Shown: in pieces, positions 1,077-45,367 of the stretch
How positions within the stretch are numbered: position 1 is the stretch's first letter
Layout: the number at the start of each line of letters is the position of its first letter
IMG/VR virus record: IMGVR_UViG_3300043411_002995
Coordinates: 1 to 64,000 of that record
Direction: 5' to 3' (one strand)
From: a virus
DNA: 64,000 nucleotides
The notes under the pieces: model-generated
Databases searched by the model: none
What the model saw: only the letters and a program-made list of their open reading frames with translations
What the model was told of the DNA's origin: nothing
Program-made: the position numbers and the translations under genes

Positions 1077-1414
1077 GGACGCGGGTGACGAAGCCGCCGC
1101 CGGGGTGGACGCGGATCGACCCGCGGCCCTGGCGCAAGACCACCGCGCGCTGGCGGCACACGAGCGGCTGGCGGCTCGTGCACTGCGGTCACCCGACGGC
1201 GCACCACCCGTGGGCGCTGTACGACCCGCAGGGCTACATGCACACGACCGGGGGCCAGGCGGCGTACGGGCGTAGGCCGTGGAACGGCACGGCGTGGAAC
1301 AGCCTGGTCGAGGCGTGGGACTACGTGGCGTTCATGCTGGCGCACCCGCGGACGTTCCGCTGGCCGGCGTGGACGCGGGGGCGGCACCAGCTGGGAGGGC
1401 CCGATGGCGGATGA
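1073..1414 (+). CDS. Hypothetical Trp-rich protein
   Basis: ATGA overlap with upstream gene; GC-rich third codon positions. Confidence 0.65.
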   Translation: MRTRVTKPPPGWTRIDPRPWRKTTARWRHTSGWRLVHCGHPTAHHPWALYDPQGYMHTTGGQAAYGRRPWNGTAWNSLVEAWDYVAFMLAHPRTFRWPAWTRGRHQLGGPDGG

Positions 1415-1664
1415 CGAACCGAACCCGCGGAGCCGGTTGGTCCCACCGTACGAGACGTGCCCGCACTGCGGCATGGCGACGACGCTGTGCGACTGGTGCA
1501 TCGAGGGGCACGTGCTCTACGGCGACGGCTCGGCGTTCCCCTGCCCGCACTGTGGCGGGCGCGGGTCTGGGTGTCCGGACGAGGCGGGGATCTACTTCGG
1601 CGACACCATCTTCCGTGGTTGCCAGGGGTGGGTCAGGCAGATCGAACAGGAGCTGAAGGTATGA
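1404..1664 (+). CDS. Small zinc-finger protein (CxxC, CxxCxGxG)
   Basis: CPHCG, CDWC and CPHCGGRG motifs; GGAGG RBS. Confidence 0.65.
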   Translation: MADDEPNPRSRLVPPYETCPHCGMATTLCDWCIEGHVLYGDGSAFPCPHCGGRGSGCPDEAGIYFGDTIFRGCQGWVRQIEQELKV

Positions 1665-1689
1665 ACGCTCAACCTGAACGAGGCGCGCG

Positions 1690-4600
1690 ATGACGTTCTG
1701 GAAGGACTACGCGTACGTCGACGCGCAGATGGAGCACCAGGTCACCAAGGCGAAGCTGCCGTGGGTGCGGATGCGGGTGGGGGACGTGCAGCGGCGGGTG
1801 GTCGAGAAGTCCTCGGGGACGAACTGCTACGCGACGGTGCAGCGGTTCAAGGACGCGACGAGCCTGCGCGAGCTGCAGCGGCAGAAGGCGAAGCCGCCGG
1901 TGCCGGTGCCGCCGCCGCCCCCGAGCAAGAAGGGCAAGGGCAAGGGCAAGCCGCAGCCCGAGCTCGAGCTCGACCCGGCGGAGCTGGCGGCCGCAGCCGC
2001 GGCGAAGGAGGTGGCGGCCGCGGAGCGCGAGGCGGACGAGCTGCCCGAGCAGCAGCCGCACTACCACGGGCTGTTCTTCGACTTCGACGCGGACCCGGGC
2101 AAGGAGACCGGGCCCGCGCACGGGATGACCTTCGAGGGGGCGACGGAGCTCGCGCTCAACCAGGTCCGCACGCTGGCGGCGTGGTTCCTGCGGAGCTTCC
2201 CGGGGCTCTCGCCCAAGCACGTCCAGGCCTGGTACTCGGGCTCGAAGGGGTTCCACCTGGTGGTGCGCCCCGAGCCGTTCAACATCCGGCCGCACATGCA
2301 CCTGACGTACATCGTCAAGCGCATCGCGCTCGAGCTGAGCCAGAGCCTGGGGCTGACGACGCTCGACCGCACGGTCTACTCGATCCCGCGGATGTGGCGC
2401 ATCCCGAACACGGTCCACCCCAAGACCCGGCGCTACAAGATCGAGCTCACCCACGACGAGCTGATGACGATGAAGCCGGGGGACATCGTCGAGCTCTCGC
2501 AGCACGCGCGGAACCCCGGGGCGGAGGCCCTGCCGGACAGCCACATCTACCCGGAGAGCGACTACAAGGACATCCCGCCGCTGCCGGAGGCGGTGGCCTG
2601 GTACCTCGAGCACTACCAGGCGTACGACGCGTACCGGGACCTGAAGAAGCTGATGCCGCGGCGGCCGATCCAACGGCCGGACGAGGGCGACGCGTTCCCG
2701 GTGTGCGTCCAGGACATCTTGAAGAACGGGCCGAAGGAGGGCGGCCCGAACCGGAACCGGGTGCTGTTGCCGCTGGCCGGGTTCTTCCACGACGCGGGGC
2801 TGAACGCGAAGGAGGCGCAGCGCCAGCTCGACGACTGGACCCGCGAGCACTACCCGAACGACGGGCACACGGCGGAGCGGATCGCGAACGGGCACTCGGT
2901 CATCGACCAGGCGTACCGGGGGCACGTGAAGTTCAGCTGCCGGTTCATCCGGTCGCTGGCCGGCACCGGGGAGAACGGCCGGGTGGCGTGCGTGGGCGAG
3001 GACAAGTGCCCGTGGATCGCGAACCCGACGGACCAGGAGCCGGCGCAGGTGCCGGAGATCCACCTGAGCGAGGCGAGCAAGGGCTGCTACGTCAACACGA
3101 TGATCAAGACGGCGGTGCACGTCGCGGCGATCGCGAAGGCGCCGTTCGAGCTGCCCGTGAAGGGGCGGATCATGTGCACGCCGAACCCGGAGGCGGCGAT
3201 CTGCGAAAACTGCCCGAACAACCTGGCCGGGGGCAAGGGGAAGCTGCAGTTCACGTTCGACGTGGAGGAGCGAGCAGTGCTCGACCTGGTCGACGTCAAC
3301 GACTCGAACCGCAAGGGGACGATCAAGGCGCGGGTCGGGATCCCGAAGGACTGCCACAAGCACAAGATCGAGATCCTCGAGAGCAGCAACGTGGAGGAGC
3401 TGCAGATCATCCCGATGGTCGACTACGCGCACGCCTACGAGGTGTCGATGGCGGCGGACGACGACGACCTCAACAAGAAGTCGGCGAAGCACGTCGTGCG
3501 GCGGGCGTTCTACCTGGGCCACGGCATCGAGGCGAACAAGAAGTACATGGTCGAGTCGATGGTCTTCGGGCACCCGAAGGACCAGCGGATCTGCTTCCTG
3601 TTCGACAAGGCCGACCCGGCGCAGAACGACATCGACCAGTTTCACATGACCGCGGAGCTCAAGGACAAGCTCCGCATCTTCCAGCCGCGGCCAGGGCAGT
3701 CGGTCTACGACAAGTTCCAGGAGATCCACCGGGACCTGACGGCGAACGTGCACCAGATCGGCGGCCGCTTCGACCTCTCCATCGCGGTCGACCTCTGCTA
3801 CCACGCGGTGATCGGGTTCAAGTTCGCGGGCCAGCCGGTCCACAAGGGGTGGTTCGAGCTGCTGGTGATGGGGGACACGGGCACGGGCAAGACGACGCTG
3901 ATCGAGCGGATGATGCGGCACTACGGGCTCGGGGAGCTCATCGCCGGCGAGGACTCGAAGCGCACGGGCCTGGTCTACGCCAGCATCCAGATGCAGGGGC
4001 AGTGGATCTTGCGGTGGGGGAAGATCCCGCAGAACGACCGGCGGCTGCTGATCATCGACGAGTTCGCGGGCATCCCGGGCGAGGAGGTCGGGAAGATGAC
4101 GCAGCTGCGGTCGAGCGGTCGAGCGGTGGGCGGCGGCGTGAACGCGGACTACGAGACGTGGGCGCGGACGCGGCTCATCCTGATCACGAACCCGCGGAAC
4201 AACCGGGGGCAGATGGCGGGGTTCAACTACGGCATCCAGGCGGTGGAGGACCTGTTCGACGAGGCGCAGGACCTGCGGCGCGTGGACCTGGCGATCATCG
4301 CCGAGAAGGACGAGGTGAAGACGGAGCTGCTCAACAAGCGGTGGGACAAGAGCGATCTGCCGCACGTCTACACGGCGGACCTGTGCCGCAGCATGGTGCT
4401 GTGGGCGTGGAGCCGCGAGCCGCACCACATCGAGTGGCAGGGGGGCGCGGAGGACGCGCTCCTGCGGTGGGCAGACCGGATGGGAGACACGTACGAGTGC
4501 GACGTGCCGCTGGCGGAGCGGGCGGACCTGCGGTTGAAGCTGGCGCGCATCAGCGCGGCGGTGGCGGCGCGGCTGTTCTCGACGGACGCGACGGCCAAGA

Positions 4601-5121
4601 AGGTGATCATCACGACCGACCACGTCGACTTCGCGGCCCAGTTCATGGACCGGAGCTACCGCAAGAAGTCGATGGCGTACTTCGAGTACGCGCGGAAGTA
4701 CAAGCAGGACAACCACTACAGCGAGGAGAAGAAGGTCGACATCAAGAAGACGATGCTCGGGTTCGGGGACGAGAGCGAGTCGATCATCGCGACGATGCTC
4801 GACGTCGACCTCCTCTCGAAGCCGATGTTCGCGGACATGGTGAACCTGGACCAGGACGACCTGCGGCGGCTGTGGAAGTACCTGGTGGGCGAGCGGCTGC
4901 TGCGCAAGACGGCGCGCGGGTACCGCAAGACGCCGGCGTTCACGAAGTTCCTCAAGGGGATGGGCGGGGGCAAGAGCGGGTACTCGGGCGAGCTGCCCGA
5001 CGACTTCGAGACGGGCGGGAACTTCGAGGAGCACGCGGCGCGCCCGCCGGCGGACGCGTTCTTCGCAGACGAGGACCTGGACTACCCCCCGGGTGGCGAC
5101 GACGAGCCCCCGCCGTTCTGA
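1690..5121 (+). CDS. Archaeo-eukaryotic primase (PriS-like + PriL Fe-S-like domain) fused to an MCM-family replicative helicase
   Basis: AEP motifs FFDFDAD, YSGSKGFH and DRTVYSIPRMWRIPNT; four Cys in PriL-CTD spacing (FPVC...FSC...C...CP); Cys cluster CTPN..ICENC; Walker A GDTGTGKT, SKRTGL, Walker B LLIIDE, sensor ITNP, Arg finger LRRVDL. Confidence 0.85.
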   Translation: MTFWKDYAYVDAQMEHQVTKAKLPWVRMRVGDVQRRVVEKSSGTNCYATVQRFKDATSLRELQRQKAKPPVPVPPPPPSKKGKGKGKPQPELELDPAELAAAAAAKEVAAAEREADELPEQQPHYHGLFFDFDADPGKETGPAHGMTFEGATELALNQVRTLAAWFLRSFPGLSPKHVQAWYSGSKGFHLVVRPEPFNIRPHMHLTYIVKRIALELSQSLGLTTLDRTVYSIPRMWRIPNTVHPKTRRYKIELTHDELMTMKPGDIVELSQHARNPGAEALPDSHIYPESDYKDIPPLPEAVAWYLEHYQAYDAYRDLKKLMPRRPIQRPDEGDAFPVCVQDILKNGPKEGGPNRNRVLLPLAGFFHDAGLNAKEAQRQLDDWTREHYPNDGHTAERIANGHSVIDQAYRGHVKFSCRFIRSLAGTGENGRVACVGEDKCPWIANPTDQEPAQVPEIHLSEASKGCYVNTMIKTAVHVAAIAKAPFELPVKGRIMCTPNPEAAICENCPNNLAGGKGKLQFTFDVEERAVLDLVDVNDSNRKGTIKARVGIPKDCHKHKIEILESSNVEELQIIPMVDYAHAYEVSMAADDDDLNKKSAKHVVRRAFYLGHGIEANKKYMVESMVFGHPKDQRICFLFDKADPAQNDIDQFHMTAELKDKLRIFQPRPGQSVYDKFQEIHRDLTANVHQIGGRFDLSIAVDLCYHAVIGFKFAGQPVHKGWFELLVMGDTGTGKTTLIERMMRHYGLGELIAGEDSKRTGLVYASIQMQGQWILRWGKIPQNDRRLLIIDEFAGIPGEEVGKMTQLRSSGRAVGGGVNADYETWARTRLILITNPRNNRGQMAGFNYGIQAVEDLFDEAQDLRRVDLAIIAEKDEVKTELLNKRWDKSDLPHVYTADLCRSMVLWAWSREPHHIEWQGGAEDALLRWADRMGDTYECDVPLAERADLRLKLARISAAVAARLFSTDATAKKVIITTDHVDFAAQFMDRSYRKKSMAYFEYARKYKQDNHYSEEKKVDIKKTMLGFGDESESIIATMLDVDLLSKPMFADMVNLDQDDLRRLWKYLVGERLLRKTARGYRKTPAFTKFLKGMGGGKSGYSGELPDDFETGGNFEEHAARPPADAFFADEDLDYPPGGDDEPPPF

Positions 5122-5132
5122 GGAGGATGATG

Positions 5133-5411
5133 ATGACGAAGTTCCTGTTCGTGGTGCCCGAGCGGTGGCGGACCGAAACGCGCGGCGACGAGGCGATCAT
5201 CACCTCGCCGTCGGGCCTGAGCGTCACCATCGACTGGGCGCGGCGCGAGATCCGGCCGGGCATCTCGAGCTACGGCAAGCCGATCAACCAGACCACGTAC
5301 GCCCGGCGGAACTGGCAGCAGCGGATGGTGGACGACGCGCTCGCGTACCTGAGCGAGCACGAGGCCACCCTGCCCGGCAAGCCGACGACGAAGCCCACGA
5401 AGAAGAGGTGA
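5133..5411 (+). CDS. Hypothetical protein
   Basis: GGAGG RBS; codon bias. Confidence 0.65.
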   Translation: MTKFLFVVPERWRTETRGDEAIITSPSGLSVTIDWARREIRPGISSYGKPINQTTYARRNWQQRMVDDALAYLSEHEATLPGKPTTKPTKKR

Positions 5412-6846: not shown

Positions 6847-7061
6847 CCCACCAGCAGCGGGCAGTGCTCTACCTGGGGCGTGAGCTGCTGCGTCGGTATC
6901 GTGAGTGCCAGGCGACGGTCAACGCGCGCCGGGAGCAAGATCTGCACTGGCAGGCTCGGCAGCTCTACCACCTGTACTGCGCGATGGTCCGGATGTTCTG
7001 GGCGCGCGACCCGCGCTACGACCCGTTCTGGCGCGGAGGAGAACGATCTTGCGACATGTGA
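6843..7061 (+). CDS. Hypothetical protein
   Basis: ATGA overlap. Confidence 0.55.
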   Translation: MTHQQRAVLYLGRELLRRYRECQATVNARREQDLHWQARQLYHLYCAMVRMFWARDPRYDPFWRGGERSCDM

Positions 7062-7155
7062 ACAAGGAGGACTGACAGATCCACAAGCTGTACGACGCCT
7101 ACATCCGAGTCCGCCCCGGCGGCATCCTCGGCCAACCCTGAGAGACCAAGCGACC

Positions 7156-8532
7156 ATGAAGAACGAGAAGCTCGAGATCACTGCTGTGGACGTCCGCGGC
7201 TTCAAGCGGATCAAGCACGTCCACATCGAGACCGAGGACCACCGCAACATCCTGCTCATCGCGGGCAAGAACCGGCAGGGCAAGAGCTCGCTGATGGACG
7301 CGCTCGACGCGGCCTTCTGCGGGGGCGAGGCGTTGCCCACGGAGCCGATCCGCAAGGGCGACGAGGCGACGACCATCGACGTCGAGCTCAACGACGGGCT
7401 CTACAAGATCAAGCGCACCTTCAAGGTGGGCAAGGAGGGCAAGAGCGAGGGCAAGCTGCTGACGGGGCTGGTGGTGACGGGGCCGGACGGCAAGCTGAGC
7501 TCGCCGCAGACGTGGCTGGACAACCTGGTGGCGCAGCGGTTCCTGGACCCGCTGGCGTTCCTGGGCCGGACGCCCGCCGAGCAGCGGAAGATCTTGCTCG
7601 GCATCGTGGGCGTGGACATCGACAAGCTGCAGGCCGAGTCGCGGGCGTTCTACGAGAGCCGGACGGAGGCGAACCGGGCCCTCAAGCAGGCGGTGGCGCA
7701 GCGCGAGGGGCTGGTCGATCCGGGGTCGGCGCCGGCGGGGACGCGGTCGGCGTCGGCCATCCAGGACGAGCTCGACCAGGTCGAGGAGGACCTGCGGGCG
7801 GGCGAGCTGGCGGCGGCCAAGGCAGCGAAGTGCACGGAGACCATGAACGCGCTCCGGGTCGAGGCCAAGAACAAGGAGGAGGAGATCGAGGCGATCAAGG
7901 GGAAGCTGGCGCGGGCCCAGGCCGACCTGGTGAAGATCGAGGAGCGCCTGGCGAAGGGCCAGGAGGTGACGCTCGAGGCGCAGGCGGCGGCGCCGACGGC
8001 GGACAAGGTGGAGGCGCTGGCGGTGCGTCGGCGGACGCTCAAGGGCGAGATGCGGGGGGTGGAGGAGTTCGTGCGGTGGGAGAGCCGGGTGCAGGAGCAC
8101 CAGAAGCAGGTGGCGCAGCTCGACGCCAAGGTGGCGTCGCACCAGGCGCGGGTGGCCGAGCTGACCACGCGGATGGGAGAGATCGACGAGCGCAAGGCGC
8201 AGATCCTGACGCAGGCGCGGATGCCGGTGGAGGGGCTCGAGGTGGTGGAGGACGGGCTGCGGCTGGGCGGGGTGCCGCTCGAGCAGGCGAGCCAGGCGGA
8301 GCAGCTGCGGTGTTCGCTGGCGATCGCGATCGCGCAGTCGCCGCGGCTGCGGGACGTGTGGGCCAAGAGCGGGTCGCTGCTCGATGAGGAGGGGCTGGAG
8401 ACGCTGCGCCAGGTGGCGGCGGACCTGGACTGCCGGCTGTGGCTGGAGATGGTGAACGAGCGGCCCGGGGACACGCGGGCGGTGATCATCCGGGACGGGC
8501 AGGCGGTGGGGCAAGAAGCCCCCGGGACGTGA
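7156..8532 (+). CDS. SMC/Rad50(SbcC)-like ABC-family coiled-coil ATPase (phage AAA_23 type)
   Basis: N-terminal VRGFKRIK, Walker A GKNRQGKSS, long coiled coil, signature-like ASQAEQ, D-loop-like GSLLD. Confidence 0.85.
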   Translation: MKNEKLEITAVDVRGFKRIKHVHIETEDHRNILLIAGKNRQGKSSLMDALDAAFCGGEALPTEPIRKGDEATTIDVELNDGLYKIKRTFKVGKEGKSEGKLLTGLVVTGPDGKLSSPQTWLDNLVAQRFLDPLAFLGRTPAEQRKILLGIVGVDIDKLQAESRAFYESRTEANRALKQAVAQREGLVDPGSAPAGTRSASAIQDELDQVEEDLRAGELAAAKAAKCTETMNALRVEAKNKEEEIEAIKGKLARAQADLVKIEERLAKGQEVTLEAQAAAPTADKVEALAVRRRTLKGEMRGVEEFVRWESRVQEHQKQVAQLDAKVASHQARVAELTTRMGEIDERKAQILTQARMPVEGLEVVEDGLRLGGVPLEQASQAEQLRCSLAIAIAQSPRLRDVWAKSGSLLDEEGLETLRQVAADLDCRLWLEMVNERPGDTRAVIIRDGQAVGQEAPGT

Positions 8533-10380: not shown

Positions 10381-10652
10381 TGGCCCACAAGCTGACCCGC
10401 CTGGCGTTCCGCCAGCTGATCAACGAGGACATCGCCTGGCTCGAGCAGCAGCCGCGCACGCTCGAGCGCGACCACATCCTCATGGCGCTCAAGGAGAGCG
10501 AGCGCTTCCACTACGACCTGCCCGACCTCCTGCAGCGCATCGTCGCCGAAGACGACGCGCTGACCACGGCGGGGAAGGAGGGGCTGAGCGACGTCCTGGC
10601 CGACGAGGTCTTCGGCTGGGTCGACCAGCTCGAGGGTCCCCATGGCGACTGA
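10380..10652 (+). CDS. Hypothetical protein
   Basis: TGATG overlap. Confidence 0.65.
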   Translation: MAHKLTRLAFRQLINEDIAWLEQQPRTLERDHILMALKESERFHYDLPDLLQRIVAEDDALTTAGKEGLSDVLADEVFGWVDQLEGPHGD

Positions 10653-11787
10653 TCCGCCCCCACCGCCGTCCAAGAAGCCGTCCTGGCAGGATCGCATCAA
10701 CCCGATGCTGAACAGGGTGCAGCCGGTCACCCGGGTCGTCGAGAACGTCGCCCGGCTGGCGGTGCACCTCCAGAAGCCGACGGTCCTCGGCATCGTCGGC
10801 ATGGCGTCGGCGGGGACCAACGCGCTGCGCGACCTGCTGGGCAACAACCCGACGGCGGGCCACGACCTCGACGTCTTCTGCTCGCGGGGCTACCTGCTCG
10901 AGGCCTTCAAGAAGGCCGGCGCCCAGGTGCGCTCGGCCGACCCGCGCGCGCCTGGCTGCCTCGACATCATCATGCACAACCACACCTTCCGCATCCGGGC
11001 GGACGGGAGCCTCTACAGCGACACGGAGTTCGAGCAGCCGTGGATCGAGTGGCTGCGGCAGATGCTGGATCGCGAGCTTCCGCACGCGATCGAGATCCGT
11101 CCGGGGCACGGGCACGAGCAGTACCAGTCGGTGGCGACGTCGCTGACGTCGCTGCGCTCGGCGCAGGGGCAGGAGATCTGGCAGGCGACCCAGCCGCTGC
11201 TCGGGAGCGGCCGGGTGATCTTGCTCACCGGCAAGCCCGGGATGGGCAAGACGACGATGGCGCAGGAGATCGCGCGCCTGGCCGAGCTCGGCCGGGTGGT
11301 GCAGCTGCAGAGCGACATCGTCGGGGCGCCGCGCGATGACGGCGGCGGCCACAAGAACGCGACGCCGCAGTCGACCAGCCGGAGCGGCGGGTTCGAGGAG
11401 GGCCTGGCGATGCTGTCGCCGGGGGTGGTGATCGTCGACGACATCGACAAGATCTACCTGTCGCTGAGCCGCATCGAGCAGATCCGCAAGGCGGCCAAGC
11501 TGGTGATCTTCACCGCGAACAACGGCGACCAGGACGAGGTCCTGGACAACGCGACGATGCGCCCGGCGCGGATCGACGAGGTGTTCGAGGTGAAGGGGGG
11601 CTACACGACGCGGCGCGCGCCGTTCGACCAGCTCACGGACGAGGAGTGGGAGGAGGCGCGCGAGTGGCCCGTGGCCTTCCTCAACGAGCTCGAGGAGCGG
11701 TGCTCCTCGCGTCCGGGCAATCTCCGCTTCGATGACCTGAAGAAGCGGGTGGGGCTGCGCACGCGCAGCGCGCGCGGGATCTACTGA
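10642..11787 (+). CDS. AAA+ ATPase (classical clade, BCS1-like architecture)
   Basis: Walker A GKPGMGKT, Walker B VIVDDID, sensor TAN, second region of homology LDNATMRPARID. Confidence 0.8.
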   Translation: MATDPPPPPSKKPSWQDRINPMLNRVQPVTRVVENVARLAVHLQKPTVLGIVGMASAGTNALRDLLGNNPTAGHDLDVFCSRGYLLEAFKKAGAQVRSADPRAPGCLDIIMHNHTFRIRADGSLYSDTEFEQPWIEWLRQMLDRELPHAIEIRPGHGHEQYQSVATSLTSLRSAQGQEIWQATQPLLGSGRVILLTGKPGMGKTTMAQEIARLAELGRVVQLQSDIVGAPRDDGGGHKNATPQSTSRSGGFEEGLAMLSPGVVIVDDIDKIYLSLSRIEQIRKAAKLVIFTANNGDQDEVLDNATMRPARIDEVFEVKGGYTTRRAPFDQLTDEEWEEAREWPVAFLNELEERCSSRPGNLRFDDLKKRVGLRTRSARGIY

Positions 11788-19511: not shown

Positions 19512-19807
19512 TCGACGAGGGCGTCGACCGCCGGTGCTGGCTCTGCAAGCGGCACCGCACGACGGGGTTCGTGCTGGTGCAGACGCTCCCGTGCTGCGGG
19601 GAGGTGCTCTCCGTGTGCGCCGAGAAGTGCGCCGAGATGATCCCGCGGGTGTGCAGGGGGATGACGGTGGAGCGGTACGTGGAGAAGTTCGCGGCGATGC
19701 ACGCCGTGATGTGCAAGAAGGGACGATCTGCTGATGAGCGACGCGGCACACCTGGCGACGAAGATCCCCAACCTGGTGGTGCTGACGGGGGGCAAGGGTC
19801 AGCCTGA
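19508..19807 (+). CDS. Hypothetical Cys-rich protein
   Basis: GTGA overlap; CWLC, CC, CxxxC; overlaps dinG start. Confidence 0.5.
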   Translation: MIDEGVDRRCWLCKRHRTTGFVLVQTLPCCGEVLSVCAEKCAEMIPRVCRGMTVERYVEKFAAMHAVMCKKGRSADERRGTPGDEDPQPGGADGGQGSA

Positions 19808-21833
19808 GCGCGACTACGTCCAGGACGTCTTCGGCAAGGGCGGCTACCTGGACGCGCGGATCGACGGCTACCAGCCACGCGACGGGCAGATCAAGCTCGC
19901 GCGTGCGATCGACCGCGGCATCCGCGAGGGCCGGCACGTCATCGGTGAGGGCCCGACCGGCACGGGCAAGAGCTTCGCCTACTCGGTGCCGGCGGCGTAC
20001 CACGCGGTGCACAGCGGCAAGCGGGTGTGCATCGTCACGGCGAACAAGAACCTGCAGCGGCAGATCTACCAGAAGGACCTGGCGGCGCTGGCGGCCGCGG
20101 TGCCGTGGCCGTTCACCTACGCGATCCGCAAGGGGGTCGCGAGCTACCTGTGCCGCCGCAACTTCGAGGCGCGGACGTACCAGGGGCTGCTGTTCGAGAC
20201 CACCGAGCAGCGGCAGATGATCGAAGCGACGGTGCGGTGGGCGGAGACGACGACGACGGGGGACTACGAGGACAGCCCCGGACCGTCGGCGAAGGTCTGG
20301 GCGGGGTTCTCGACGGGGCGCGAGGAGTGCGATGGGCGGAAGTGCCCGCAGTTCGGCCGATGCTTCGTGAAGAAGGCGAAGGACGCCTCGGAGTCTGCGC
20401 AGATCATCGTCACGAACTACCACCTGTTCTTCCTGCACCTGCGGATGGGGGTGGAGCGGCCGATCTTGCCGGAGTTCGACGTGGTGATCATGGACGAGGC
20501 GCACCGCGCGGCGAACATCGCGCGCGAGTTCTTCGGCCAGGAGATCACCTTCGGCGGGCTCTACCGCTGCGTGACGAACCTGCACATGGTCGAGGTGGCA
20601 CGGTTCAAGGCGCAGGGGCAGCGACTGCGCGAGGCCTTCATGAAGGAGGTGGCGGGGCTGTGGCATGCGCTGGCGGCCCGGGCCCGGGCGCACAACCACG
20701 TCATCACCGAGAAGAACCGGCTGGACACGACGGCGCTCGAGGAGCGGCTCGAGGAGATCCGGCTGTTCTACGGTGAGGTGGCAGACGCGCTCGATCCGCC
20801 CGATGCGATCATCAGCTCGAAGGGGACGGCGCAGGGGGCGCAGGCCAGCGCGTACCGCAAGCTGGCGGTGAAGTGCCTCGAGAAGCAGGAGGAGCTCGCC
20901 GAGTTCCGGTCGCTCGCCGGCGAGGGGATGGTCTACTTCATCGAGGGGTCGGGGCACGAGCCGCAGGGCAAGTACGTGCGGCTCAAGTCGAAGGCGATCG
21001 AGGTCAGCGGCTTCATGCGGCCGATGCTCTTCGAGCGCTACAAGACGGTGGTGCAGACCTCGGCGACGCTGGCGGCGCGCGGCGGCAACGGCGGGGACTT
21101 CGCCTACCTGCGGCGCGAGATGGGGATGAACCCGCGCGCGGGGGCCGAGGACCTGTCGGTCGAGGAGCTGGTGGTCGAGTCGCCGTTCGACTGGCCGCAG
21201 CAGGCGATGCTGGTGATCCCGTCGACCATGCCGGAGTTCGTGCATGGCGACGACCGCTGGGACAAGGCGGTGCTCGACCACACCCAGCAGACGGTCGAGC
21301 TGATGAAGGGGCGGACGCTGTGCCTGTTCACGAGCTTCCGCATGCTCGAGGCGGCGCGCGACCGGCTGCGGAAGGAGACCCGCTACCGCATCCTGGTGCA
21401 GGGCGAGAAGACGAACCGCGAGCTCGCGGCCGAGTTCCAGGACGACGTCCACTCGGTGTTGCTGGGGACCGAGTCCTTCGCCGAGGGGGTCTCGATCGAG
21501 GGTGAGGCCTGCAGCTGCGTGCTGCTGGACAAGATCCCGTTCATCAACAAGAACGACCCGGTGATGATGGGGCTCGAGCGCCGGCTCAAGGAGCGCGGCA
21601 GCCGGGACGACGTCTTCCGGACGTACATGCTGCCGGAGGCGATCATCAGCTTCAAGCAGCGGGTCGGGCGGCTGATCCGCACGGTGGAGGATGTGGGGGT
21701 GGTGGTCGTGCTCGATCGCCGGCTCCTGACGAAGCCGTACCGCAAGCAGTTCATCAAGAGCATCCCGCCGGTCCGTCAGACGACGGACCTCGAGGCGATC
21801 CAGCCCTTCTTGTGGGAGAAGGGCGTCGTGTAG
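19734..21833 (+). CDS. dinG: DinG/YoaA-family Fe-S ATP-dependent DNA helicase
   Basis: Q motif RDGQ, EGPTGTGKS, KG..SYLC and C..RKC....C Fe-S Cys, DEAH, TSATL, LFTS, SFAEGV, KIPF, QRVGRLIR, LDRR. Confidence 0.92.
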   Translation: MSDAAHLATKIPNLVVLTGGKGQPERDYVQDVFGKGGYLDARIDGYQPRDGQIKLARAIDRGIREGRHVIGEGPTGTGKSFAYSVPAAYHAVHSGKRVCIVTANKNLQRQIYQKDLAALAAAVPWPFTYAIRKGVASYLCRRNFEARTYQGLLFETTEQRQMIEATVRWAETTTTGDYEDSPGPSAKVWAGFSTGREECDGRKCPQFGRCFVKKAKDASESAQIIVTNYHLFFLHLRMGVERPILPEFDVVIMDEAHRAANIAREFFGQEITFGGLYRCVTNLHMVEVARFKAQGQRLREAFMKEVAGLWHALAARARAHNHVITEKNRLDTTALEERLEEIRLFYGEVADALDPPDAIISSKGTAQGAQASAYRKLAVKCLEKQEELAEFRSLAGEGMVYFIEGSGHEPQGKYVRLKSKAIEVSGFMRPMLFERYKTVVQTSATLAARGGNGGDFAYLRREMGMNPRAGAEDLSVEELVVESPFDWPQQAMLVIPSTMPEFVHGDDRWDKAVLDHTQQTVELMKGRTLCLFTSFRMLEAARDRLRKETRYRILVQGEKTNRELAAEFQDDVHSVLLGTESFAEGVSIEGEACSCVLLDKIPFINKNDPVMMGLERRLKERGSRDDVFRTYMLPEAIISFKQRVGRLIRTVEDVGVVVVLDRRLLTKPYRKQFIKSIPPVRQTTDLEAIQPFLWEKGVV

Positions 21834-24806: not shown

Positions 24807-26615
24807 GTGGCCGCCCAGATCTTGCTCGCCGCAGACTTCGGTCTGCCGGCGAGGGCCGTGACCGAGTCCCTGGCGGTCCTCGGCCGCAAGGGCGGGGGCA
24901 AGACCAACACCGGGGGCGTGCTGTTCGAGCAGATGCACATGATCGGCGCGCAGTGCGTGGCGCTGGACCCGGTCGGCAACTGGTGGGGACTTCGGCTCTC
25001 CGCCAGCGGCAAGCGCAAGGGGCTCGACATTCCCGTGTTCGGCGGGGTGCACGGCGACGTGCCGCTCACGCCGACGTCGGGGAAGCTGATCGCCCAGCTG
25101 GTGGTCGACCGGCGGGTGAGCTGCGTCATCGACCTGATGACCTTCAAGCCGGAGCAGCGGCGGCTGTTCGCCGCGGACTTCGCCGAGGAGTTGTTCGAGC
25201 TCAAGAAGACCCACCGCTCGCCGCTCCACCTGTTCGTGGAGGAGGCGCGCAAGTTCATCCCGCAGCTGTCGAAGAGCAAGCTCGACCTGCGGATGGCGGA
25301 CGCGTTCGACGACATCGTGCGGCTGGGCCGGAACTACGGCCTGGGCGTGTCGCTGCTCGACCAGCGGCCGCAGTCCGTCAACAAGGAGGTGCTGTCGCAG
25401 ACCGAGATCCTCATCGTGCACCAGCTGACCGAGACCCACGGCCGGAAGGCCATCGAGGACTGGGTGCGGTCGAAGACGACCAAGGGGGGCGAGCAGCTCG
25501 CGGACCTGGACCAGCTCGAGGTGGGGGAGGCCTTCGTGTGGAGCCCGGGCCTGCTGCGCACCTTCGCCCGGGTGCGCGTGCAGAAGAAGCAGACCTACGA
25601 CGCGTCGGCGACGCCCGAGCTCGGCAGCGGGCAGGAGGACGTCGCTCCGCGGCCGCTGGACGCCACCGACCTGACCCGCCTCGAGGCGGCCATGACGGAG
25701 GTTGTGGCGGAGGCGGCTGCCACGGACCCGACGAAGCTGCGCCAGGAGGTGCAGCGGTTGCGCGCTCAGGTCGCGACCCTCGAGGTCCGCGCGCCGGCGC
25801 CGGCCCCGCCGGCGAAGGAAGTGCGCGTCGCGGTGATGGGGCCCGAGGACTGGGAGCGGCTGGATAAGTACGTGGAACGATTGGACAAGGAGGTGAAACT
25901 GCTCGACCAGCAGCGCGACAAGCTGGCGCAGGCCCAGCAAGTGGTGACGACCGAGCTCGGGAACATCAAGACGCTGATCATGCAGGCCGCGGCCACCGCG
26001 ACCTCAAGCCGGGGAACGTCATCCACCGCGACGTCAAGCCCGACAACCACCGCCTCGAGGCCGACGGGCAGCCTCAAGGTGGTCTACACCGACAAGCCCA
26101 CCCAGCGGGTCCAGGCCGCCGGCGCCGCCGGTGTGGCGCTGACCGGGCCCGAGCAGCGCGTCCTCGAGGCGCTGGCCTGGCAGGCCGCGATCGGCATCCA
26201 CGAGGCCGACTCCACCACCACCGCCTTCCTCGCCGGCTACAAGGTGGGCGGCGCCTACAACAACGTGCGGGGCAAGCTCCGGTCCGCCGGCCTGGTCGAC
26301 TACCCGACGCCGGGGACCCTCAAGCTGACCCTCGCCGGCGCCGCGGCCGCGCCGGCGGTCCTCGCCCCGCTGACCACGGCGGCTCTGCACGAGCACGTGA
26401 TGGCCCGCCTCGAGGGGCCCCACCGCCGACTGCTGGCCCCACTTCTCGAGGCCTACCCCGAGAGCCTGACCACCACCGAGCTCGCGGCCGCGTCGGGCTA
26501 CGAGATCGGCGGCGCCTTCAACAACGCCCGGGGCCGGCTGCGGTCCATGGGACTTGCCGACTACCCCACGACCGGCTCGGTTCGCGCGACCGACCGGCTC
26601 TTCCTGAAGAGGTGA
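24807..26615 (+). CDS. HerA/FtsK-family ATPase (DUF87-like) with coiled coil and duplicated C-terminal winged-helix domains
   Basis: Walker A GRKGGGKT, LDPVG, Walker B LFVEEA, RLGRNYG, DQRPQ.VNK.VLSQ; two GY..GGA.NN.RG.LRS.GL.DYP repeats. Confidence 0.8.
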   Translation: MAAQILLAADFGLPARAVTESLAVLGRKGGGKTNTGGVLFEQMHMIGAQCVALDPVGNWWGLRLSASGKRKGLDIPVFGGVHGDVPLTPTSGKLIAQLVVDRRVSCVIDLMTFKPEQRRLFAADFAEELFELKKTHRSPLHLFVEEARKFIPQLSKSKLDLRMADAFDDIVRLGRNYGLGVSLLDQRPQSVNKEVLSQTEILIVHQLTETHGRKAIEDWVRSKTTKGGEQLADLDQLEVGEAFVWSPGLLRTFARVRVQKKQTYDASATPELGSGQEDVAPRPLDATDLTRLEAAMTEVVAEAAATDPTKLRQEVQRLRAQVATLEVRAPAPAPPAKEVRVAVMGPEDWERLDKYVERLDKEVKLLDQQRDKLAQAQQVVTTELGNIKTLIMQAAATATSSRGTSSTATSSPTTTASRPTGSLKVVYTDKPTQRVQAAGAAGVALTGPEQRVLEALAWQAAIGIHEADSTTTAFLAGYKVGGAYNNVRGKLRSAGLVDYPTPGTLKLTLAGAAAAPAVLAPLTTAALHEHVMARLEGPHRRLLAPLLEAYPESLTTTELAAASGYEIGGAFNNARGRLRSMGLADYPTTGSVRATDRLFLKR

Positions 26616-44695: not shown

Positions 44696-45150
44696 AGATC
44701 AAACGGAAGCCTAACGTCGAGGAGGTCGAGCGGATCAAGGGGCGCCCCAGTCGCCTCTTGACCGCTCGGTGCCCCGACCTGCGCTCCGTTTTCCCATCGA
44801 CGCCGTGCAAGAACCTCGTCTGCGAGTACGCCGTCCACAACTCGATCTACCTGAACTGCAGCTTCGTCGCCGCGACGGCCGAGGTCGACACCGGGCTCGC
44901 TCTCGCAGACATCGGCGCGATGATGGATCCGCCGATGACCCGCGAGGGCGTCCGGCTCATCGAGCGCGCCGCGTTGAAGAAGCTGAAGGCCGCAGGGCTC
45001 GATGGGCCGGCAGGACAAGCTGATGACCCCGCCCTACGTCAACCGCGTCCACCTGCAAGGGGTGGTGTCGTCTCACCCGATCCTGAAGGCGCTGACCGCC
45101 ACCACGAACTTCACGACGTTCGAGGTGTCGCTGGTCGAAAGCTGGGCTAA
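44692..45150 (+). CDS. Cys-motif protein with a sigma-70 region 4 HTH
   Basis: LADIGAMM...MTREGVRLIERAALKKLK; N-terminal C...PC....C...C. Confidence 0.7.
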   Translation: MKIKRKPNVEEVERIKGRPSRLLTARCPDLRSVFPSTPCKNLVCEYAVHNSIYLNCSFVAATAEVDTGLALADIGAMMDPPMTREGVRLIERAALKKLKAAGLDGPAGQADDPALRQPRPPARGGVVSPDPEGADRHHELHDVRGVAGRKLG

Positions 45151-45367
45151 CGCCGACGGCGCTCACCGCGCGCGGAAGAACCGCGTGGTGGTGGAGGTCG
45201 TCGGGCGGGACTCGGCGATGGCGCTCGCGCGTGCGCGGGTCGGAGCGTGGGTGACGATCGAGGGCTACATCCGGTCCGAGATCTTCAAGGGCGAGACGCT
45301 CATGAAGGTCAGGACGTTGACGATCGACGTCTGGGAGGAGCCTGTTGGACACCGACCATCAAGCTGA
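45023..45367 (+). CDS. ssb: Single-stranded DNA-binding protein (OB fold, no acidic tail)
   Basis: VNRVHLQG, F.V...ESW, V.V.G, G.WV.IEG.IRS. Confidence 0.75.
   Translation: MTPPYVNRVHLQGVVSSHPILKALTATTNFTTFEVSLVESWANADGAHRARKNRVVVEVVGRDSAMALARARVGAWVTIEGYIRSEIFKGETLMKVRTLTIDVWEEPVGHRPSS

Follow-up and report, generated by a model that had tools for sequence, protein, structure and literature searches.

The window analysed here is a 64,000-nucleotide stretch of viral DNA, namely the first 64 kb of the IMG/VR record IMGVR_UViG_3300043411_002995, a viral contig of 111,705 bp (G000) that is ~71% complete. Close to its start lies a gene that very probably encodes a primase-helicase of the type known from the Bacillus protein BcMCM, and which would provide this phage with its own primosome in a single polypeptide. 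From the N to the C terminus the protein comprises an archaeo-eukaryotic primase (AEP) domain of the PriS type, a domain resembling the C-terminal domain (CTD) of the primase large subunit PriL, the OB fold and zinc-binding insert of the N-terminal MCM domain (MCM-N), the AAA+ ATPase core of MCM, a probable winged helix and an acidic tail (Table 1). It is homologous to BcMCM, and its catalytic and metal-ligand residues are conserved.

Residues 181-1088 are 32% identical (E = 6e-117) to the 'MCM domain family protein' of the Bacillus prophage phBC6A51, which was the best tblastn match among cultured phages. This match is BC1863, i.e. BcMCM, a protein of 1028 amino acids which itself matches the Pfam families DNA_primase_S, DNA_primase_lrg and MCM. 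An alignment of 20 sequences including BcMCM (hereafter A1) was collinear with the latter over the entire length, the first beta-strands and the C-terminal tail included. Both proteins share the same succession of AEP, PriL-like four-cysteine domain, second four-cysteine site with OB fold, MCM AAA+ core, helical or winged-helix part and acidic tail with an aromatic last residue. Judged from this alignment, the window protein is a full-length BcMCM homologue and a divergent, high-GC member of that family. Conservation was assessed over a set of 50 homologues with 30-87% identity to the primase-helicase. Residues D131, D133, G184, G187 and H189, both sets of four cysteines, and K734, D790, E791, N834 and R864 were invariant in these 50 sequences and in A1 with BcMCM, such that the DxD and SGxKGFH motifs, the two cysteine quartets, Walker A and B, sensor 1 and the arginine finger are all common to the window protein and BcMCM. 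As these key residues are invariant across the 50 homologues, the motif matches are not due to chance. Four cysteines of BcMCM (C261/C342/C364/C369) align exactly with C339/C417/C434/C440, and the counterpart of the MCM-N quartet is C424/C430/C435/C480. Moreover, five of the six residues mutated in BcMCM are kept: K653, D711, R782 and C261 correspond to K734, D790, R864 and C339, whilst R638 is conservatively replaced by K719. The two proteins nevertheless differ in several respects. The window protein has a low-complexity insert of 60-70 residues in its AEP domain and a longer tail ending in DDEPPPF, whereas BcMCM ends in DEYY. BcMCM resides in a 61-kb Bacillus prophage with a PolA gene beside it, whereas the window gene has no PolA gene downstream and lies on a large, high-GC phage contig that carries genes for a contractile tail and a candidate gene for an RNA polymerase of the multisubunit type.

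The initial annotation of this DNA, made from the sequence alone, listed a set of motifs, all of which were found in the protein and given residue positions. It also implied that the fusion of AEP, PriL and MCM was new, which does not stand, for the layout has been published for BcMCM (PMC2715239, PMC3273815). Phage primosomes with AEP, PriL and MCM in a single chain have been described since 2005 and are biochemically characterised. The earlier accounts are those of McGeoch & Bell 2005 and Iyer 2005, which are taken here from the papers citing them (PMC2715239, PMC3273815, PMC5862659), and Kazlauskas et al. 2018 list phage MCMs as previously described (PMC5862659). Samuels et al. 2009 assigned residues 73-182 of BcMCM to the AEP, 187-417 to the primase large subunit and 560-900 to MCM (PMC2715239), and Sanchez-Berrondo et al. 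2012 depicted the protein as MCM joined to an 'AEP including the small and large subunits' (PMC3273815). BcMCM is a 3'-5' helicase with an ATPase stimulated by single-stranded DNA (PMC2715239, PMC3273815). It forms nucleotide-dependent hexamers, and it has a primase that prefers dNTPs and Mn as well as DNA polymerase activity (PMC3273815). The suggestion that the AEP might also act as a primase-polymerase is therefore correct for this prototype (PMC3273815) and may, by homology, extend to the window protein.

Table 1. Position of the primase-helicase gene, its domains and its motifs in the window.
Feature	Coordinates	Strand	Details
AEP/PriL-CTD/MCM primase-helicase gene (P0001)	1690..5121	+	1143 amino acids; ATG 1690, TGA 5119-5121
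PriS-type AEP catalytic domain	1690..2664	+	residues 1-325; PF01896 matches of relatives, PriS profile matches in the PDB
Variable low-complexity insert in AEP domain	1867..2064	+	residues ~60-125; gapped/variable in A1
AEP motif I, DxD in FFDFD	2074-2088	+	residues 129-133 (D131/D133); invariant
AEP motif II, SGSKGFH	2236-2256	+	residues 183-189; invariant
Helical domain like the PriL C-terminal (Fe-S) domain	2665..3045	+	residues ~326-452; Cys 339/417/434/440
MCM-N-type OB fold with Zn-binding insert	3046..3624	+	residues ~453-645; Cys 496/505/508/555
MCM AAA+ ATPase core with lid	3625..4701	+	residues ~646-1004
Walker A, GDTGTGKT	3871-3894	+	residues 728-735; invariant K734
Walker B, IIDEF	4051-4065	+	residues 788-792; invariant D790/E791
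Sensor 1, LITNP	4180-4194	+	residues 831-835; invariant N834
Arginine finger in LRRVDL	4273-4290	+	residues 862-867; invariant R864
Probable winged-helix domain	4765..4965	+	residues ~1026-1092; helix-helix-helix-strand-strand-helix, pLDDT ~85 in full-length model
Disordered acidic tail	4966..5118	+	residues 1093-1143; 14 D/E, 2 K/R; pLDDT <50
DAFFADED motif in tail	5053-5076	+	
C-terminal tip DDEPPPF	5098-5118	+	

The N-terminal part had been recognised as an AEP from its DFD and SGSKGFH motifs, and the profile searches agree with this. The AEP segments of 28 of the 31 relatives searched matched PF01896 (DNA_primase_S; best E = 7e-19), and a profile of the family returned archaeal PriS from the PDB (1zt2_A, E = 1.7e-7; also 1g71 and 1v33). 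Furthermore, phrog_16345, labelled 'primase', matched residues 159-423 (E = 3e-29). The invariant D226 is probably the aspartate of AEP motif III. The low-complexity insert sits between the N-terminal strands and the strand bearing the DxD motif, and contains Pro-rich, KGKGKGK and poly-Ala stretches. Its length varies among the high-GC relatives, and it is not present in BcMCM or the other Bacillus-type proteins. In the full-length model the pLDDT (predicted local distance difference test score) falls to ~50-65 at residues 71-100, and a helix is predicted at 96-117.

The following domain contains the first quartet of cysteines, all four of which are invariant in the 50 sequences, and matches the PriL CTD according to family and profile searches. 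PF04104 (DNA_primase_lrg) was matched by 25/31 relatives (best E = 1.8e-7), and PriCT_1 by 17/31. When a profile of this region was searched against the PDB, the 11 best matches were all to the CTD of yeast PriL (E = 0.004-0.04, the next match having E >1), and the alignment passes through the first ligand of yeast PriL, in a P-x-C motif. The ESM Atlas gave sub-threshold leads (0.75-0.85) to PF04104, PriX, PriCT-1 and the helix-bundle domain of NrS-1. Structure searches with a model of residues 296-700 did not add to this, as both lists of matches were taken up by the neighbouring OB domain. The earlier attribution of the four-cysteine segment to PriL is thus upheld. The accompanying statement that both primase subunits are tethered to MCM goes too far, for of PriL there is only the Fe-S-type C-terminal domain, not the whole subunit. 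The ~130 residues that separate the AEP from MCM-N are too few for a complete large subunit, and every PDB match falls inside the CTD. The N-terminal, PriS-binding domain of PriL is probably absent, although no search was aimed at it.

The second cysteine quartet, likewise invariant in the 50 homologues, is located where the zinc module of MCM would be expected. A Foldseek search of the PDB with the AlphaFold2 model of residues 296-700 (pLDDT 80.7) gave 243 matches with E<=1e-3, the best of which were MCM chains, including the isolated N-terminal domain of MCM8. With VIA-align the same model placed MthMCM-N first (1ltl_A, Z = 12.8, root mean square deviation 3.6, with 140 aligned residues). 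A further six MCM-N entries (4me3, 7dp3, 6wnz, 7dpd and 4pof among them) aligned over 131-150 residues, compared with ~80-100 for generic OB folds. From these models we regard the segment as a genuine MCM-N OB/Zn domain with a four-cysteine site of its own. The MCM-like Zn/OB region proposed from the motifs is therefore supported by structural matches as well as by the second quartet. Samuels et al. 2009 wrote of BcMCM that 'the typical MCM amino-terminus is missing' (PMC2715239), a published view that the modelled presence of a true MCM-N in the family revises.

The metal held by the PriL-like quartet is a separate question. Binding of a [4Fe-4S] cluster is unproven, and there is some chance, the smaller one in our estimation, that this domain instead binds structural zinc and is a PriCT/PriX-type accessory domain without a redox-active cluster. 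Zinc, the only metal measured, was detected in BcMCM by ICP-MS and was lowered in the C261A mutant (PMC2715239), C261 being the equivalent of C339. Iyer et al., as cited in PMC2715239, predicted a zinc site at C261, C342, C364 and C369. Kazlauskas et al. 2018 argue for homology between PriCT-1, PriCT-2, PriX and the Fe-S domain of PriL, and their PriCT-2 profile aligns just two of the four PriL cysteines (PMC5862659). The PriCT_1 matches of 17 relatives also fit such a domain. In eukaryotic PriL the final cysteine spacing is 40 residues, much above the 6 residues seen here. However, all four cysteines are invariant in more than 50 sequences, and the first aligns in yeast PriL to the region of the P-x-C ligand. 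The zinc in BcMCM was far under stoichiometry (0.11 per mole, raw) and could be explained by the invariant MCM-N site C496/C505/C508/C555. Given the invariance of that site, the zinc reported in 2009 may have been assigned to the wrong cysteine cluster. Moreover, aerobic purification from E. coli commonly strips proteins of their Fe-S clusters or leaves zinc in place of these.

For the ATPase the initial annotation had favoured MCM over SF3/D5 or MoxR, and MCM heads the results listed from Pfam, PDB sequence and profile searches, Foldseek and VIA-align, with neither SF3/D5 nor MoxR families among them. Single-sequence matches were weak, as would be expected if the motif resemblance were superficial and the core really an AAA+ of another type: PF00493 (MCM P-loop) scored 25.3 bits over residues 719-793 against a gathering cut-off of 23.3, and a single-sequence search of the PDB gave MCM9 and MCM2 as best matches with a phmmer E-value of 2e-4. 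In contrast, a profile built from 50 sequences matched MCM2-9 or archaeal MCM at E-values from 2e-10 to 1e-6, and the sole non-MCM entry among the 60 PDB matches listed was one PriS chain. The full-length AlphaFold2 model (pLDDT 85.3) had MCM chains as its top Foldseek matches, with E-values down to 5e-21. Residues 449-1004 superposed on whole MCM chains together with their OB/Zn domain at the N terminus, with Z = 28-31.6 over 445-470 residues (VIA-align; e.g. residues 64-607 of SsoMCM, 6mii_E). An SF3/D5 or MoxR identity is effectively refuted by the profile, Foldseek and VIA-align matches, and we consider it very improbable.

Beyond the ATPase, the model contains a probable winged helix and then a disordered tail. 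An ending of the form [DE][DE]xP[FY] is found in most close homologues as well as in several relatives fused to a DnaG-type primase (see below), one protein ending in DDDDIPF, and the Bacillus-type relatives have an acidic run followed by Y or F at the C-terminus. The tip of the primase-helicase resembles the C-terminal peptide of bacterial single-stranded DNA-binding protein (SSB), and the helicase tail may mimic that peptide. T7 gp4 also has an acidic tail, terminated by Phe, and an acidic C-terminal tail with an aromatic last residue is thus a point of likeness between the two proteins. Two SSB genes were observed on the contig. The canonical phage SSB, encoded outside the window at contig positions 76915-77370 (L084:1492-1947), ends in ADDDIPF, and an SSB-like gene inside the window (45002-45367) encodes a protein that ends in HRPSS and has no SSB-type tip.

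We infer the direction of the helicase, its assembly into hexamers, the chemistry of priming, which metal is bound and what the tail does from BcMCM and other known systems, which suggest the following mechanism. MCM-N, the AAA+ core and the probable winged helix, which make up the C-terminal two thirds, would, by homology, most likely assemble into a hexameric ring that moves along single-stranded DNA in the 3'-5' direction and opens the phage fork. The AEP/PriL-like module, flexibly attached, would prime the displaced strand. Its AEP would probably prefer dNTPs and be able to extend primers, as in BcMCM, whilst analogy with PriL, PriX and PriCT suggests that the PriL-CTD-like domain would hold the template together with the initiating nucleotide. 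The winged helix and MCM-N would add DNA binding and possibly loading at the origin, and the acidic tail ending in Pro-Phe would probably tether a partner, for instance a DNA polymerase or a protein that binds SSB.

The winged helix also lends itself to another reading, which we think possible though the less likely of the two. The protein could mainly be a self-loading replication initiator like the alpha protein of satellite phage P4 or ORF904 of plasmid pRN1. Its winged helix would then recognise the origin, and the protein would melt the DNA, load and prime there, without travelling at the fork as a primosome for every Okazaki fragment. The C-terminal winged helix of AEP-helicase fusions from mobile elements has been proposed to recognise the origin (PMC5862659), and a winged-helix-like element is present at the C-terminus of the model. 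Of the ten neighbouring open reading frames (ORFs) scanned, none was recognisable as a separate gene for an initiator or a helicase loader, and BcMCM hexamerises only with nucleotide and single-stranded DNA. On the other hand, cellular MCMs carry a C-terminal winged helix and yet are not origin binders. Neither an origin nor an iteron is in evidence, although no search was aimed at either, and an initiator role is compatible with, and does not exclude, that of a fork primosome.

Several observations weigh against the gene encoding a BcMCM-type primosome. The window protein is only ~30% identical to BcMCM, from which the activities are carried over by analogy. The first study of BcMCM found no primase activity, and found a monomer where nucleotide and DNA were absent (PMC2715239). 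At the sixth mutated position, R737 in the pre-sensor-1 (PS1) hairpin of BcMCM aligns with G816 of the window protein (nt ~4135-4137), which lies in a Gly-rich loop, GRAVGGGVN, and is Gly in most of the clade. With this replacement DNA may be gripped in another way, or else the alignment may be displaced at this point. When searched alone, the protein's own AEP segment fell below the PF01896 threshold and its PriL-like segment below the Pfam threshold, so that both assignments are made through relatives and profiles. The helical subdomain A of MCM-N was unmatched, with the aligned part of the archaeal MCM chains starting near residue 55-65, though no search was aimed at that region. Lastly, searches of the 111.7-kb contig for PolA, PolB and DnaE (DNA polymerase families A, B and C) and for the beta clamp found none of them, where its ~71% completeness means that their absence is not established.

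The last of these points bears on a further alternative, namely that the AEP domain is the main DNA polymerase of the phage, and the protein a complete helicase-primase-polymerase replicase in need of no separate polymerase. BcMCM does possess DNA-dependent DNA polymerase activity. Ten further large ORFs on the contig, scanned against PHROG, gave no polymerase, and neither PolA nor DnaE, the two polymerases sought there, was found in the fragments of three relatives, including the two closest (G001 and G002). These two fragments are, however, only ~55% complete, and more distant members of the family adjoin a polymerase gene: PolA lies beside the BcMCM prophage gene and is present in a further relative (G004), and a DnaE-type polymerase in another (G005). 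It would also be unusual for an AEP without a clamp or a proofreading domain to replicate a genome estimated at 150 kb or more. We therefore regard this alternative as improbable, and retain that of a primosome.

The gene itself is well supported as a reading frame. With the DNA at 68% GC overall, the GC content at third codon positions is 0.99 and at second positions 0.40, a pattern that fits a true gene at such GC content, and on this basis the frame was accepted as real. A GAGG sequence lies 7-8 nt 5' of the ATG, and the gene is part of a tight array on the same strand. PHROG 18685, which has no function label, matched the protein over its full length (E = 8e-145). Two long overlapping ORFs were rejected. 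One, of 1216 amino acids (1761-5411, + strand), is a high-GC artefact whose translation is rich in Ala, Gly and Arg and of low complexity. The other, of 1121 amino acids (1669-5034, - strand), fails the same codon-position test and was also taken as an artefact. Only the last ~94 codons of the former look like a real gene, and these correspond to a small downstream gene (5127-5411, + strand, ~94 amino acids) directly after a GGAGG. Upstream, positions 1404-1664 (+ strand) encode a Cys-rich protein of 86 amino acids with a weak zinc-ribbon match.

The remainder of the contig is that of a phage, with genes for a terminase, portal, tail sheath and baseplate or tail fibre. No near-identical phage DNA was found when the gene was searched by megablast against 50,697 phage records, and the terminase is only ~25% identical to its best matches; we take the phage to have no close cultured relative on these comparisons. 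Genes of DNA metabolism near the primase-helicase include an SbcC-like ATPase, an AAA ATPase, an XPD/DinG-like helicase and SSBs. Downstream on the + strand, the genes at 6880-8532, 10642-11787, 19734-21833 and 24807-26615 are, respectively, for an SbcC/AAA_23-like ATPase, an AAA ATPase, an XPD/DinG-like SF2 helicase (Helicase_C_2 match, E = 5e-38) and a HerA-like ATPase. Outside the window, contig positions 79574-83935 on the - strand (L086:15574-19935) hold an ORF of 1453 amino acids with several matches to phage 'RNA polymerase beta subunit' PHROGs. Its matches suggest a phage RNA polymerase of the multisubunit type, as in large and jumbo phages.

The architecture of the window protein can be compared with that of several known systems. 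It shares with archaeal and eukaryotic MCMs (SsoMCM 6mii, MthMCM-N 1ltl, MCM2-7 and MCM8/9) the OB/Zn N-domain and AAA+ core as well as the motifs GDxGxxKS/T, IDEF, NP and R-x-DL. However, identity to these proteins is 12-16%, a primase module stands in place of the unmatched subdomain A, and the protein is encoded by a bacterial virus and predicted to be a homohexamer. PolpTN2 of pTN2 (PMC3973330) and the primase of Nanoarchaeum equitans (PMC10250227) likewise join a PriS-like and a PriL-related domain in one chain, whereas no helicase domain is described there for either. In the window protein, the PriL part is short (~130 amino acids), with a complete MCM module after it. Primase and hexameric helicase are also united in a single chain in pRN1 ORF904 (AEP-PriCT-SF3), the PrimPol-PV1 supergroup (PMC5862659) and T7 gp4, but there the helicase is of SF3 or SF4 and here it is an SF6 MCM. 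T7 gp4 in particular fuses a DnaG-type primase to a DnaB-type helicase, and the window protein differs from it in expected polarity.

The primase-helicase family was found on 339 IMG/VR contigs and comprises ~80 full-length clusters. Among the close relatives, proteins with 53-80% identity are encoded on contigs of 150-178 kb. Some members depart from the usual length: P0078, with 1474 amino acids, has intein/LAGLIDADG Pfam matches, P0038 and P0058 have ~1400, and P0099 and P0102 (712-742 amino acids) contain the helicase half only and look like stand-alone MCM-like helicases. The same MCM-N/AAA+/winged-helix module is also fused to a primase of the DnaG type (CHC2 zinc ribbon plus Toprim) in gp48 of Microbacterium phage Hiddenleaf (L003:1945-4830) and in many metagenomic proteins (P0083-P0112). 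These relatives are 33-37% identical to the window protein over residues ~445-1090, and the phage genes concerned are annotated only as 'DNA primase/helicase'. The occurrence of either DnaG or AEP-PriL on one MCM-like helicase looks like a swap of primase modules. Taken together with the SSB-like tip, this invites a speculative reading to which we give a low probability: an MCM chassis would accept interchangeable primases (AEP plus PriL, or DnaG-type), its tip, by mimicking SSB, would dock the helicase to clients of the host SSB such as the replicative polymerase, and a large phage in whose DNA no polymerase gene has so far been detected could then run its fork with host enzymes. The family is large and extends into high-GC, large, uncultivated phages, and the DnaG fusion and the SSB-like tip are points at which one can test how a helicase of archaeal type is integrated into the replisome of a bacterium.

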